DNA of 64,000 nt from Isurus oxyrinchus (taxonomy: Eukaryota). Position 1 is the first letter of the stretch. The number at the start of each line of letters is the position of its first letter. The notes beneath the pieces were generated by a model. The model worked only from the letters and a program-made list of their open reading frames with translations. It was not told the origin of the DNA and did no database searches. The position numbers and the translations under genes were made by a program. This document shows, piece by piece, positions 9,700-61,519 of this stretch. The stretch lies in NCBI GenBank assembly GCA_026770705.1, contig JANJGN010000013.1, positions 88,722,001 through 88,786,000 of the forward strand. Reading direction: 5' to 3'.

Positions 9700-10095
9700 A
9701 ACACTTGTCTCTGAGTCAGGACTTCATGAGCTCATGCCTCACTTGATAAACAGCACTCCAGCGTAGTACTGCAGGGGCACTGAACTGTCAAAGGTGTGAT
9801 CTTTTAGATGAGATGTAAACTGAGGCCCCATCTACCCTCACAGGTGGATGTAAAAGATTTCATGGTACTCTTTGAAGAAGAGCAAGGGAGTTCTCCCTGA
9901 TGTTCTGGCTGCATCCAACATGAATAATACAAATTATATGAATTATCTCATTGCTGTTTGTGGTAATTTGCTGTGTGCATTTTTAATTCCCGAGATTCCC
10001 TACAATGACTACATTTCAAAAGCGGTTACTCGGCTGTGAAGTGCATTTAATGAGCTGAAGTCGTGAAAGGTGCTATACAAATACAAGGACTTTCA
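9700..10095 (+). mobile_element. Deu-domain SINE
   Basis: ctctgagtcagg head remnant, central domain and gtgaaaggtgctatacaaatacaag tail. Confidence 0.7.
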
Positions 10096-10158
10096 AAATC
10101 ATATTTATTTCCTTGTTGTTTTATAACAAAAGAGTCAATGTCATAGCATGAGTCTCGA

Positions 10159-10745
10159 GTCACAGATAGACCAGGCTAGGTCAGGATGGCAGGTTTACAT
10201 CTCTGGGGTCACAGATAGACCAGGCTAGGTCAGGATGGCAGGTTTACATCCCTGGGGTCACAGATAGACCAGACTAGGTCAGGATGGCAGGTTTACATCC
10301 CTGGGGTCACAGCTAGACCAGGCTAGGTCAGGATGGCAGGTTTACATCTCTGGGGTCACAGATAGACCAGGCTAGGTCAGGATGGCAGGTTTAGATCCCT
10401 GGGGTCACAGATAGACCAGGCTAGGTCAGGATGGCAGGTTTACATCCCTGGGGTCACAGATAGACCAGGCTAGGTCAGGATGGCAGGTTTACATCCCTGG
10501 GGTCACAGAAAGACCAGGCTAGGTCAGGATGGCAGGTTTACATCCCTGGGGTCACAGCTAGACCAGGCTAGGTCAGGATGGCAGGTTTACATCCCTGGGG
10601 TCACAGCTAGACCAGGCTAGGTCAGGATGGCAGGTTTACATCCCTGGGGTCACAGAAAGACCAGGCTAGGTCAGGATGGCAGGTTTAGATCCCTGGGGTC
10701 ACAGCTAGACCAGGCTAGGTCAGGATGGCAGGTTTACATCCCTGG
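10159..10745 (+). repeat. 49-bp minisatellite, about 12 near-identical units (gtcacagatagaccaggctaggtcaggatggcaggtttacatccctggg)
   Basis: Period of 49 (gtcacag at 10159, 10208 and onward); units differ only at single positions. Confidence 0.97.
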
Positions 10746-10981
10746 AGGATACGAGTGACCCTGCTGGGTGTTTAACAAAAGGTCCACCAGCTTTCACAGT
10801 CATTTTTATTAATGTCAAGTTTAATGGTAGGATTTGCACTCAACGCTCTTGGGCTCCTATTTGCAATACCATAGCCATAAAGCAAGCACATCAACTTCAC
10901 CACACATGGGAAAACCTGACCACAATGTCACTTCTATTTTTTAGATAAGTCAATTCTATTCAGACTGAAGCTTTTTTTTGA

Positions 10982-13214: not shown

Positions 13215-14930
13215 GGTAGGTGTTAAGGAAAGCAAGGTAGAAAGGCTGTAAGGTTTAGGAAAGAAATTTCAGAACTTAGGGCATAGAGTGGCTGAAGCTG
13301 CATCCGCTAGTGGTGGAGCAATTAAAGTTGTGGATGCTCAAGAAACCTGAATTACAGAAGTGCAGATATCTCAGGGGGCTTTAGAGTGGGAAGAGATTAG
13401 AGAGATAGGGAGGAACCAGATCTGAGAAGGATTTGAAACCAAGGATGAGGATTTTAAAATTGAGGCTTTGCTTGACCGGGAGCCAACCCAGGTTCATGAG
13501 TACACGCACAGGAGTGAAAGGTGAAGGCATTTGGTATAAGTTAGGACACAGGCAGCAGAGTTTTGGATGACCTCATGTTTATAGAAGGTAGAATGTGGAA
13601 GGCTGGCCTGGTGTGCGTTGGAATAGTCAACTCCGGAGGTAATAAAGTTGCGAATGAGGCTTTCAGCAGAAGAGCTCAGACAAGGGCACAGTCGGTGATG
13701 GTATGGAGGTGGAAGTAAAAACAAAAAAACTGCGGATGGTGGAAATCCAAAACAAAAACAAAAACAGAATTACCTGGAAAAACTCAGCAGGTCTGGCAGC
13801 ATCGGCGGAGAAGAAAAGAGTTGACGTTTCGAGTCTTCATGACCCTTCGACAGAACTTGTTCTGTCGAAGGGTCATGAGGACTCGAAACATCAACCCTTT
13901 TCTTCTCCGCCGATGCTGCCAGACCTGCTGAGTTTTTCCAGGTAATTCTGTTTTTGTTTTTGTTTTGGAGGTGGAAATAGTTGGCCTGGGTGACAGTGTG
14001 GATATGTGGTAGAGGGTTCACCTCAAACATAACACCAAGGTTGCAAACAGTCTGGTTCAGCCTCAGACAGTTACCAGGGTGAAGGGGGAGGTCAGTGGTG
14101 AGGGAGCGGAGTTTGTGGCAGGGCAGGAGACAATGGTTTCACTCTGCCCAATATTGAATTTGAGGAGTACTCGATGTCAGGCAAGCATTTTGACACTGTA
14201 GAGGTACTGGCGTTGTCGAGAGAGGTAGGAATGAGGTAAAACTGGTTGTTGACAGTTTATATGTGGAAACTAACATGGTGCTTTCGATGATGTCACTGAG
14301 TGGTAACATGTAGATGAGAAATAGCAAGGCTCAAGGATCAATCCTTGGGGGACACCAGAGGTAACTGTGTGAGAGCAGGAGGAGAAATCATTGATGACAA
14401 TTTTCCAGCTACAATTAGATAGGTAAGAATGGAACCAGGCAAGGGCAGTCCCACCCAGTGGGGAAGCGTTAGAGAAAGATAATTTGATCAGATGTTGCAA
14501 GGACTGCAGACAAGTCAAGGAGGATGAAGAGGGATAGTTTGCCTTTGTCACAGTCGCATAGGATGTCATTGAGACTTTGAGAAAAAACTTTTTCAGTACT
14601 GTGACATGGCAGAAATCTGATTGGAGGGATTCAAACATGGAGTTCCAGGAAAGATGGGTATGAATTTTGGAGGAGATAACATTTTCGGTTTTGGAGAGAA
14701 AAAGGAGATTGGAGATGGGGGCAGTAGTTTGCAAGGATGGAGACTTGATGGATTGGACTTTTGAGGAGAGGTGATAATGGCGGATTTGAAAGAGAGAGGA
14801 ACAGAACCTGAGGAGAGAGAACTGTTAACAATATCGACTAATGTGGTCCAAGAAGGGAAATTGGGTGGTCAGTAGTTTAGTGGCGATAGAGTCAAGAGAG
14901 CAGGAACTGGGTCTCATGGATAAAATGAGC
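13215..14930 (-). mobile_element. L2 LINE ORF2 remnant, interrupted by the hairpin element
   Basis: Minus-strand peptides GTALAWFHSYLSN, TSGVPQGLIL and FITSGVDYSNA...IQNSAACVLT are typical of L2 RT. Confidence 0.85.
13718..13969. mobile_element. Fold-back (inverted pLTR) Penelope-like insert: 111-bp arms, 2-nt loop, about 14-bp target duplication
   Basis: Arms 13746-13856 and 13859-13969 are near-perfect reverse complements; tggaggtggaa(g/a)ta occurs at 13704-13717 and 13966-13979. Confidence 0.88.
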
Positions 14931-20370: not shown

Positions 20371-20591
20371 GATAAATGAACTCCATTAAAACAACGGGTA
20401 AATATTCCACCTGCTGCCCATGCTGGTTATTCAGGGGACGAGGGAGCTGGGGGTGGGGTCATGATTGGAAACTTATTTGGTGCGGTCCCCAACTTCATGC
20501 CCACTAATCCCTCGCACTGGAATTGGCCACCTCAGATGTGGCTGCCCGCATCTGCACTGCTGCTTGTCAAATGAAGAAAGTATGGCAGAGA

Positions 20592-20696
20592 TAAAAACAA
20601 AAAACTGCGGATGCTGGAAATCCAAAGCAAAAACAGAATTACCTGGAAAAACTCAGCAGGTCTGGCAGCATCAGCGGAGAAGAAAAGAGTTGACGT
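20592..20696 (-). mobile_element. Single-arm copy of the Penelope-like hairpin element, inside an older MITE-like sequence
   Basis: Nearly identical to the left arms at 13718 and 58603; stops at gagttgacgt. Confidence 0.85.
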
Positions 20697-56914: not shown

Positions 56915-58602
56915 GAATTGTCAATCTGGATTACAGATTGATTCTGTGGAGTCGAATTTGAACCCACAGCCTTCTGATTTACAGGCACACGTACTACCCG
57001 CTGAGTCATGGCTGCTACTTGTCCAAAATAACTGTTGACCAATTGAATAAAAGGCTAATTCATCCTCCTGACTAAACTATGTTATGTGCAGAAGTATTGA
57101 ACATGTTGTCCTAGGCTGCAATCATCTGCCCATATTATTATTGGTTCAATAGGTTTGTGGGATGGGAGTGGGACAGGGAGATTGCTTGTTTTTCTTTTGA
57201 TTCATAATTCATTTCTAAAGAGTCTGTTTGCCTGCTAATTTTAGAATTAGATTCCCAATGGAAGAATAACTTCTTCTTGTATTTTGTGTCGTGGTTTCAC
57301 AGAACCAGCTAGTGAGATATTTGTTCATTTGCTGGAGCTTGTTGAAACTTTGAAGGAGTTTGGGACCTCCACGATCGGCTCAGTTAGTTGTACTCTTGCC
57401 TCTGGGTTAGAAGGTTGTGGGTTCAAATCCCAATTGAATGATTTGATCCTGGAATCCAGGCTATCACTCACAGTGTAGTACTGTGGGAGGTATCAGCCAC
57501 AGGGTTCTGCCTGATGTGCTGACAAATATTTATCCCTTAACCAACATCGCTACAAACAGAATACCTGGTTATTATCACATTGCTGTCTGTGGGATTTTGC
57601 TACGTGCAAATTTGGCTGTATTTTTCTTTTAATTCATTCACAGAGTGTGGATAACAGTGGCAAGGTGGACATTTATTGCCCTTGAGAAGGTGATGGTGAG
57701 CTGCCTGCAACAATACAACTGAATAATTTACTAAGCCTTTTTAGAGGGCAGTTAGGAGTCAGCCACAATGCTGTGGGTCTGGAGACACATAAGGACAGCA
57801 GATCAAGGTCATCAGGCAGAGTCAACATGGTGTTGTGAAAGGGAAATCATGTTTAACCAACTTATTAGAGTTCTTTGAAGAAGTAACGTGCTGTGGATAA
57901 AGAGGAACCAGTGGATGTACTATACTTGAATTTTCAGAAGATATTTGATAAAGTGCCATCTCAAAGGTTATTGCAGAAAAATAAAATCTCATGGTATAGG
58001 GGGTAACATATTGGCATGGATAGAAGGTTGGCTTGATAACAGGAAGCAGAGAGTAGGCATAAATGGGTCTTTTTCAGGTTGGCAAGATGTAATAAGTGGT
58101 GAGCCACCAGGGATTAGTGCTGGACGTCAACTGTTTGCAATTTATATAAATGACTTGGATGAAGGGATTGACAAACTTGCTGATAACACAAAGATAGGTT
58201 GGAAAGTTAGCTGTGAAGAGGACATAGGCCAGGATCTTTAGGTCGGCGAGCGGGGGGTGGGGCCCGCTCACTGACGCGTAAAATGACGCAGGATGATGTC
58301 GGGCGGAACTCCCAAAGTCACCCTGTGTTATTTCAATTTTCAGGTCGGCGGGGGCGCAGCCAAATCAGCTGTGCACTCGCGGACCTGTGAACAGCCTATT
58401 GAGGCCATTGATAAAGTAATTGACTTAATTAATGGACCTGCCCGTCCAACCTTAAGGTTGGTGGGCAGGCTCGGAACCCTGGTGGACTTCAGAAAAAACA
58501 TGAAACCTTATCCACAGGCGGGATGAGGGTTTTTAAAACTTTACTAAAGCTTACAGTTAAAGTGATGGACATGTCCTAACTCATGTGACAGTATCACGTG
58601 AT

Positions 58603-59082
58603 AAAAACAAAGAAAACTGCGGATGCTGGAAATCCAAAACAAAAACAGAATTACCTGGAAAAACTCAGCAGGTCTGGCAGCATCGGCGGAGAAGAAAAGA
58701 GTTGACGTTTCGAGTCCTCATGACCCTTTGACAGAACTTGATTTTGAGTCCAAGAAAGAGTTGAAATATAAGCTGGTTTAAGGTGTGTGTGTGGGGGGGC
58801 GGAGAGATAGAGAGAGAGAGAGATGCTTGTGTAGACAAACAAGCAGTGATACTTGTTTGATACAGTGATACTCACTGCTTGTTTGTCTACACAAGCACCT
58901 CTGTCTCTCTCTCTCTCTCCGCCCCCCCACACACACACCTTAAACCAGCTTATATTTCAACTCTTTCTTGGACTCGAAATCAAGTTCTGTCGAAGGGTCA
59001 TGAGGACTCGAAACGTCAACTCTTTTCTTCTCCGCCGATGCTGCCAGACCTGCTGAGTTTTTCCAGGTAATTCTGTTTTTTT
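58603..59082. mobile_element. Fold-back (inverted pLTR) Penelope-like insert: about 208-bp arms, 22-nt spacer, perfect 17-bp target duplication
   Basis: Arms at about 58641-58849 and 58872-59080; tgacagtatcacgtgat at 58586-58602 and 59083-59099. Confidence 0.92.
58983..59021 (+). ncRNA. Minimal type I hammerhead-ribozyme-like motif with variant core CUGUCGA
   Basis: AGTT-CTGTCGA-A-GGGTC(ATGAG)GACTC-GAAAC-GTC-AACT: stem I AGTT/AACT, stem II GGGUC/GACUC, palindromic ACGU stem III, predicted cut after C59017. Activity is not shown. Confidence 0.6.
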
Positions 59083-61519
59083 TGACAGTATCACGTGATG
59101 GGACATGTCAGGGAAATTTTGTTTCTGTTCCTTGATCATTTTTAAATTTGGCGCCGATCTCCCTGAGAGACTTAGCATGAAAGAGCACTCTCAGCTGAGG
59201 GATTCCCCCCCCACCGCATGTCACACTGGGCGGGCCTTAATTGGCCCACCCACATAAAACCGATCGGAGGTGCGCCTACACATGGCCGCTCCTGCATTTC
59301 CCCCAACGGGGGGAGAATTCTTCCCATAAGGAGGCTACAAAAAGATATAGATAGGTTAAGTGAGTGGGCAAAGATCTGGCAGATGGAGAAGAATGTGGGA
59401 AAATGTGAAATTGTCCATTTTGGCAGGAAGAATATAGGAGAAGCATATTATCAAAATGGTGAGAGATTGCAAAGCTCTGAGGTGCAGAGGGATCTGGATG
59501 TCCTCGTGCATGAATCACAAAAAGTTGGTATGCAAGTAATTAGGAAAGCTAATAGAATGTTACCATTTATTGCGAGGGGAATTGAATACAAAAGTAGTGA
59601 GGTTATGCTTCAGTTGTACAGGGTACTGGTGAGACCACATCTGGGGTATTGTGTAAAGTATTGGTCACCTTATTTAAGGAAGAATGTAAATGCATCAGAA
59701 ACAGTTCAGAGAATGTTTACCAGACTAATGCCTGGTGGGTGGTCTTGTGAGGAAAGGCTGGACAGACTAGGTCTGTATCCGCCGGAGTTTAGAAGAGTAA
59801 GAGATGACTTGATTGAAACATATAAGACCCTGAGGGGTCTTGACAGGGTGGATATGGAGACGTTGTTTCCTCTTGTGGAAGGATCTAGAGCTAGGGGTCA
59901 CTAAAAATAAGGGGTTGCCCCATTTAAAATAGAGATGAGGAAAAAGTTTTGCACTCTAAGGGTCATAGGTGTTTGGAACTCTCTTCCTGAAAAGATGGTG
60001 GAAGCAGAGCCTTTGAATGTTTTTAAGGCAGTGGTGCATAGATTCTTGGTAAGCAAGGGGGTGATAGGTTATTGGGGGTTGGTGGGATGCACATTTCCGG
60101 TTCCTATCAGATCAGCCATGAATGGCAGAACGACTGAGTGGCTTACTCCTGCTCCTGGCTCGTATGTTCGTATTTCCTTCCCTAAAGGTCATTAATGAAC
60201 CAGATGGGTTCTTACAAGAGTCCAGTAGTTTCATGGTCACCATTATTCTAGATTTAAGGAATTGAATTTATATTCCCCAATTGCTGTGGTGGGATTTTAA
60301 CTCACATCTCCAGATTATTAGCCCAGATGTTTAAATCTGTATCTTTCATGGGATGTGGGCATTGCAAGGCCACCATGCATTGCCCATCCCTAATTGCCCT
60401 TGAACCAAATGGCTTGCTAGGCCATTGCAGAGGGCAGTAAAGAGTCAACCACATTGCAGTGGGTCTGGAGTCACACGTAGACTAGACAGCAGATTCTGTT
60501 CTCTAAAGGGTGTTAGTGAACCAGATGGGCATTTACAACAATTGATGATAATTTGATGGTCACCATTACTGATACTAGCGTTTCAATTCCAGATTTTTCC
60601 TTTTATTAATTGAATTTGAATTCAATTCTAGCTGCCTGGGATTTGAACTTATATCCCCAGAGGATTAGCCTGGCCTCTGGGGACATAGGTTCTGGATTAT
60701 TAGCCTAGCAGCATTACCACTACACCACCATCCTACATGACAACAATGACAACACTTTAAAAGTACTTGATTGGCTATAAAGTGCCTTGGGACATACTGA
60801 GATTGAAAAGGGCTGAATATAAATGTAAGTTCTTTCTTTAATACCACCATCGGTTGAACTTTTAAAAATTCATGCGACCATCGACTGCACTCATTGTGCA
60901 CTTCCTATTAAAATTCCCGAGCGGAAGACTACAAAATACCAAGTATCTAAGCTATATGGATCAGGATTTCTTCACTGTTCTGCACTAGATTTCAGCTAGG
61001 GACTGTAATTGGCTTCAGTGCTCCTGGGCTAAAAGGAGAGGAGGAATTTGATCAGGTTCCCAAATCCCCATTGTTACCCAACAACATCTGCTGGAAAGTG
61101 ATGAGTTGTGGACATGAGGTCAATATAAGGACCATGGTTAACTGTGATGTACCTAATAGTTGAATAGCTGGTCAAAACCCATGCCTGGGCCCACACACAC
61201 CAAGAATGGATGCGGCACTGAATGTCAGCTGGTTGATAAAAATTTGGGACTTATAGGGAAGGAGAGAATTGAAGTTTTTTTCTTTGAAATAACTTATTGA
61301 CTCTTCTCAGCTTGTCTCTACTGTCCACAAAATGTGTTCATGTTTTCTTAACTTGAAGAAATTTGGTGTTTCTTAAAAAAAAATAACTGTTTTGTCTTTC
61401 ATGTATTGTAAAACTTTGAACGTTGAGCATAAAGCCCTTGCTGTTTCACTTCAACATGTCGAGTCGATTCCATGAACTTGCTAGTCTTTACTTAATCTTC
61501 CTCTCTCCTTTCTATCCAG

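Follow-up and report, generated by a model that had tools for sequence, protein, structure and literature searches.

The question raised by positions 58983 to 59021 of the window—by which we mean the whole 64,000-nucleotide stretch of DNA that was analyzed—is whether a hammerhead whose core reads CUGUCGA, with U in place of the conserved A at position 6, is a functional non-canonical ribozyme, an attenuated one or a dead one. An earlier note on this DNA had recognized here a minimal hammerhead of the Penelope type with a palindromic, loop-less stem III, and the layout bears this out (Table 1): ACGU is followed by C17, and the cut predicted between 59017 and 59018 agrees with the arrangement of the motif on the + strand. 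When compared with the minimal hammerheads (min-HHR) of Penelope-like elements (PLEs), the core C3 U4 G5 A6 N7 G8 A9...G12 A13 A14 is matched everywhere except at position 6, which is U. Helix II has G10.1-C11.1 and a bulged base after A9, positions 15.2-16.2 are palindromic and without loop III, the triplet is of the NUH type, helix I (AGUU/AACU) lies within the 3-5 bp range, and the ancestry leads to canonical A6 motifs in the same place in the pLTR. Rfam returned no hammerhead match at E<=1, only hairpin and miRNA models below their gathering scores. Judged from its sequence, the motif has the build and the ancestry of a PLE minimal hammerhead and departs from it at A6.

Table 1. Features of the hammerhead motif and of related copies in the window
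Feature	Position	Strand	Basis or remark
Minimal type I hammerhead, core CUGUCGA, bulged A, ACGU stem III, GUC triplet	58983..59021	+	sequence and folding; layout as in PMC4209133
Stem I 5' strand, AGTT	58983-58986	+	sequence
C3-A9, CTGTCGA	58987-58993	+	sequence
U6 replacing core A6	58990	+	sequence and genome counts
Bulged A after A9	58994	+	sequence
Stem II, GGGTC / GACTC, 5 bp including one G-U	58995-58999 / 59005-59009	+	
GAAA	59010-59013	+	sequence
CG	59014-59015	+	sequence
U16.1	59016	+	sequence
C17	59017	+	sequence
Stem I 3' strand, AACT	59018-59021	+	sequence
TATA-like box TATATTT, putative pLTR core promoter	58951..58957	+	36 nt before C3
Right arm of fold-back insertion, 5'-truncated pLTR and short tail	58872..59083	+	212 nt, 97% complementary
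Left arm, inverted 5'-truncated pLTR and long tail	58603..58849	-	
Left-arm hammerhead, U6 and G8A (CpG decay)	58700..58738	-	
16-bp target-site duplication, left	58587..58602	+	
16-bp target-site duplication, right	59084..59099	+	
Second fold-back of the same PLE family, inverted at hammerhead 5' edge	13718..13966		
Left-arm hammerhead of 13718 element, U6, core otherwise intact	13819..13857	-	
Right-arm hammerhead of 13718 element, U6 and G16.2A (CpG decay)	13858..13896	+	
Third copy, truncated within motif at A15.1, without position 6	20591..20696	-	left coordinate approximate

The change at position 6 is a family trait and not the decay of one copy. This had been argued from the CTGTC core start shared by the arms of the elements at 13718 and 58603; that start is indeed present in all four, with an otherwise intact core in just two arms and CpG decay in the remaining two. 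These arms go back to two insertions, each flanked by a target-site duplication of its own (for the 13718 element, 13 bp with one mismatch, at 13705 and 13967), and not four independent copies, so the claim for the family rests on genome counts. The exact U6 37-mer has 54,482 matches in the 4.98-Gb genome (its reversed control has 0), whereas the same 37-mer with A6 has 60 and an A6U7 35-mer has 37, and with these 60 and 37 matches we rejected the idea that the youngest subfamily has a young sister with A6. One loose pattern finds U6 in 105,799 matches, A6 in 12,770 and C or G in 3,525; although C6U7 is common among the last group, the C6 copies are scattered over several backgrounds and do not show a C6 subfamily. 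A sample of 1,064,000 bases chosen regardless of motif, made up of 100 pieces of 10 kb together with the window, holds 83 copies that cover the core, with U6 in 57 (one of them probably misassigned), A6 in 25 and G6 in 1. Position 7 varies in one subfamily, with U in 80, G in 13 and C in 4 (U6 rows, counted by eye among the first 100 of 2,177 matches listed), while A6 occurs in 0/100 of those first matches. Thirty A6C7 loci were retrieved; in at least 6 of them the partner in inverted orientation still reads U6, and one pair reads A6 in both arms.

U6 is present in all three organisms represented by contigs of four public runs. Against an A6 copy, T makes up 98.6% of the depth at position 6 in organism A, 98.2% and 89.9% in organism B and 96.7% in organism C, percentages obtained with an 85% likeness filter that favors young copies and from runs whose RNA status is a guess. 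An A at position 1056 of locus L062, which marks the youngest subfamily, is common in the contigs of organism A and nearly absent in those of B and C; the latest burst looks species-specific. The window also has a tandem array with a 49-nt period at 10007-10888.

The nature of the element emerges from a tandem array at loci L061 and L062 (C1, about 459,500-469,000), in which units ~3.35 kb apart are 99.5-100% identical. Among ten regions around close match pairs, this array holds an open ORF of 918 aa between two U6 pLTRs. Its reverse transcriptase (RT) matches Pfam RVT_1 above the cut-off (E 7e-08), while the GIY-YIG match (E 9e-04, score 20.0) lies below the Pfam cut-off of 22.6; an RT DKG motif and a GIY-YIG at the C-terminus share a single ORF, and its protein (P0001) has a CX4CxxC linker before the endonuclease, within the CX2-5CxxC pattern. 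Partial tandems, an inverted truncated pLTR and a tail at one end are further Neptune/Nematis traits that we found, inverted truncated pLTRs with a tail on one end being described as typical of EN+ PLEs (PMC8557442). By the definitions in that paper, and as read from sequence, the element is an EN+ PLE of the Neptune/Nematis type. We dropped the label Poseidon, since the linker is present here whereas the Penelope/Poseidon clade is without it. Near-identical tandem units with an open ORF denote very recent activity. The suggestion in the earlier note that a weakened core is tolerated inside introns found no support: U6 is fixed in autonomous source elements, which makes it a property of the retrotransposon lineage. 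L062 1144-1231, which separates the hammerhead from the beginning of the ORF, contains a good 5' splice site, CAG/GTAATT, and a short 5'-UTR intron is possible; neither a splice joint nor a pile-up of ends was seen over L062:1010-1500 in RNA contigs of the public runs, contigs being unable to reveal ends.

How this lineage came to carry U6 can be followed through its subfamilies. Clustering by flanks orders them from diverged A6A7 and A6U7 copies through U6U7 (4,794 and 13,342 matches with two patterns, the second of which includes CpG-decayed C7 copies) to U6C7 classes that are 0.2-1.5% divergent. On a pLTR tree of 93 of 364 copies—built with positions 6-7 masked, young copies thinned to 14, and revertant-targeted loci and short-flank copies excluded—the U6 label needs 2 changes, versus 22 for shuffles. 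A tree of 40 ORF copies shows the same ladder, the median identity of U6C7 copies being 0.978 with one another and 0.882 with A6U7. In both trees A6 copies are basal, U6 copies form the ladder and near-identical copies come last, the base being poorly split. The comparison shows that U6 is derived from A6 subfamilies, which are older, and the trees allow a single origin. At five loci (L079, L147, L176, L278 and L280), A6 motifs of far greater age have another stem II; in this sample their decay is too advanced for covariation counts. Removal of an ATG at positions 6-8 was considered as the driver of A6U and rejected, since loop II of later subfamilies acquired an ATG and a further one lies downstream.

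Where copies of the element begin and end bears on what the RNA does during insertion. In 57 younger-subfamily copies from the unbiased sample, 5' breaks relative to C3 fall at -10..+1 in 23 (one of which, L286, is not a true truncation), at +2..+45 in 9, and at -40..-11 in 4, while 21 copies extend further, the arms of fold-backs not being independent in this set; only 1/57 breaks in the cut-site window, +29..+33. Of the 974 genome matches without C17, the first 100 listed include about 22 true cut-site breaks, less than 1% of the family, and an A6 subfamily has 2 among the first 100 of 401 matches listed. Cut-site breakpoints, which we considered as a fossil of activity, are lacking in both U6 and A6 subfamilies, and because the A6 subfamily is equally without them, they cannot separate the two. 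The copies have their ends beyond the cut site on its 3' side, at two points in the tail, so that the insertion template was uncut at the hammerhead site.

The cluster of breaks at the 5' edge of helix I lies behind the TATA-like box, which is found at -36 in 44/50 U6C7 copies and at -33 in 41/53 U6U7 copies, the spacer being variable. This box before helix I spans, with the sequence that follows, 58951-58986 of the window and 1028-1063 of L062. From this arrangement we infer that transcription may begin at helix I's 5' edge; for the older subfamilies, an alternative is a 3' splice site at the same edge, as in Drosophila virilis (PMC4209133).

The earlier note also expected the motif to be sequestered by the antisense arm, and folding predictions concur. 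For the 481-nt element, the predicted fold has an energy of -412.9 kcal/mol and a stem II pair probability of 0.00, versus 0.97-0.99 in the isolated 39-mer, in which helix I reaches 0.23-0.52. The window copy is thus predicted to be a passive insertion, locked in a long hairpin and inert. When more of the surrounding sequence is included, prediction makes the hammerhead fold a minor state, with stem II at 0.01-0.19 in RNA starting at -4 and at 0.14 in an A6 copy. Across subfamilies, we found neither a trend in folding nor a steady trend in pairing of the core with upstream sequence. In the youngest subfamily, the spacer (58970-58979 in the window) repeats 10 bases of the motif, namely the stem II 3' strand and GAAA, which were gained stepwise; this repeat might lengthen helix I or act as a competitor for stem II.

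The other core positions have stayed constant since A6U. In eight clusters of at least three copies, comprising 104 U6 copies, 0/15 other core positions vary, compared with 4/7 free positions (N7, two of loop II and N17; Fisher p=0.005) and 32/92 flank columns (p=0.005; 18/37 in the upstream part, in a corrected alignment). One apparent core difference, at 10.1, occurs in a two-copy class and comes from a single copy. Helix I differs at 1/8 positions, in one four-copy cluster, and stem II shows a single change across U6 clusters, from A-U to G-U, which keeps pairing. Both core CpGs are kept in every subfamily majority despite their fast decay in genomic copies, the core CpG stretch being intact in 22 of the first 100 of 401 older-subfamily matches listed. 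For the covariation that the earlier note proposed to look for in the stems, 12 natural copies that are close to each other (92% mean identity) give just the one-sided A-U/G-U change in stem II, and two-sided changes in 0/9 pairs. Conservation is not unique to the hammerhead: one block of 30 nt downstream and one of 18 nt upstream have changed as little as the core. Continued selection for catalysis would also be compatible with the gain of C17 (GUU to GUC) and with G8, G12 and the C3-G8 pair, all of them unchanged.

On balance, and with moderate confidence, we favor a weakened pLTR hammerhead in the source lineage of this PLE, its fold remaining under selection and its cut being probably dispensable for insertion. 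By analogy, "attenuated" fits the published data on position 6 better than "fully functional variant." A natural A6C hammerhead has a kobs under 0.1 per min (PMC3088659), and in 0.3 mM Mg2+ the A6C change lowers cleavage from 0.30 to 3.6e-6 per min, with recovery in high Mg2+ or Mn2+ (PMC7151607). Our search of the literature yielded no A6U rate for a PLE hammerhead, the cited studies being without an A6U PLE motif. In the scenario that we favor, the source lineage would have swapped A6 for U and continued to spread. Transcription from the 5' edge of helix I, behind the TATA-like box, would place the hammerhead at the head of the RNA; the uncut RNA would serve as template for reverse transcription, which would start 70-105 nt beyond C17, within the tail, and would often stop or fold back at the RNA 5' end. 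The protein of the element would probably shape or bind the fold, leaving at most a slow, protein- or metal-assisted cleavage of dimers.

A bolder possibility, which we advance only tentatively, is that PLE hammerheads have no need of position 6 in vivo: the protein of the element would replace the contacts of A6, or reuse the fold as an RNP signal at the RNA 5' end, and the lineage would have replaced all A6 lineages in several related species. If this were true, the ladder of subfamilies would be a natural time series from a ribozyme to a protein-dependent RNA element.

It is unlikely, in our estimate, that the motif is a functional non-canonical hammerhead in which protein, dimerization or another metal rescues U6 to a rate that is biologically useful and cleavage is still selected for a step other than insertion, such as RNA turnover, a translation switch or circularization. 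What speaks for it is that along the U6 ladder the catalytic G8 and G12, C3-G8, G5 and the palindrome ACGU stay as they were, changes falling on N7, N17 and loop II, that A6C in one ribozyme cleaves at 0.33 per min in 10 mM Mg2+ and has good activity in Mn2+ (PMC7151607 Table 1), and that the hammerhead of an anole PLE cleaves with the help of protein (PMC11167929). Yet A6 is kept by 44/44 representative motifs, with the consensus CUGANGAH (PMC4209133 Fig. S3), single mutants of the CUGA turn have low activity and no double mutant rescues them save the C3-G8 swap (PMC9901934), and the earliest U6 subfamily arose without a compensating change inside the motif.

We also regard as doubtful a dead ribozyme, conserved for reasons that act on DNA or primary sequence (core and downstream promoter elements, or protein binding) or by chance over a short lineage. 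The motif does stand directly behind the TATA-like box with fixed spacing, the downstream promoter element of D. virilis Penelope, RGACGTGY, likewise contains ACGT (PMC2377424), Naiad PLEs thrive without canonical hammerheads (PMC8557442), and the 12 copies compared offer no two-sided covariation. However, the sites that vary are those that the hammerhead consensus leaves free, the change in stem II keeps pairing, and about a third of the flank columns changed over the same span. Finally, tolerance by the host, with weakened-core copies surviving preferentially in introns where active ones would cut pre-mRNA, is plausible with about 120,000 motifs in the genome and could let a less harmful element spread further, but we consider it very improbable, as U6 is fixed in source elements and not sorted among inserted copies, monomer cleavage is unreported for solitary minimal motifs in the parts of PMC4209133 covered here, and fold-back copies would be sequestered whatever the base at position 6.

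The weakened but still constrained hammerhead that we favor matters for several reasons. First, PLE hammerheads cleave poorly in vitro, where minimal motifs with a canonical core show no activity as monomers and low activity as dimers (PMC4209133), and in the one reconstituted system, an anole PLE, cleavage needs protein and dead mutants leave in vitro insertion unaffected (PMC11167929). Second, a core change expected to slow cleavage has become fixed in the source of most copies while the rest of the motif stays constrained; natural A6 and U6 motifs, together with an intact ORF, make selection on the cut separable from selection on the fold. Third, most motifs of this genome would escape a descriptor search that insists on CUGANGA. 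Our literature search, whose coverage was incomplete and does not establish absence from print, found no published report of an A6U/CUGU hammerhead variant, including in PLEs of sharks and other Chondrichthyes, and the portions covered of a bioRxiv preprint (10.64898/2026.07.22.740005) and of PMC6765202 contain nothing on position 6.

Comparison with known systems places most of these features on familiar ground. With the EN+ PLEs Neptune and Nematis (Craig et al. 2021, PMC8557442), the element shares the RT DKG motif, the CX2-5CxxC linker, the C-terminal GIY-YIG and partial tandems, and against these elements its ORF is in no way unusual. Like the anole Poseidon element PAc (Frangieh et al. 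2024, PMC11167929), it has a pLTR hammerhead upstream of two tail end points and an uncut RNA template; unlike in PAc, whose motif cleaves with protein and overlaps the ORF start, the ORF begins 170 nt after C3 and encodes a CX4CxxC linker. The motif itself resembles the min-HHR of metazoan PLEs (Cervera and De la Pena 2014, PMC4209133) in its pLTR location, short helix I, bulge between A9 and 10.1, G10.1-C11.1 pair, palindromic 15.2-16.2 without loop III and pyrimidine/U-rich 5' flank, and in occurring mostly as solitary copies with few tandems about 3.3 kb apart. It differs in having U at position 6, whereas the core variant reported there is U3-A8; the supplement of that paper, as far as covered, lists neither an A6 variant nor a cartilaginous fish. 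A natural change at position 6 has its closest parallel in the A6C hammerhead of phage Bcep176, whose activity is low but detectable (Perreault et al. 2011, PMC3088659; Naghdi et al. 2020, PMC7151607), although the base there is C and not U, and a single phage copy with full helices contrasts with a dimer-type minimal motif present in ~100,000 retrotransposon copies.
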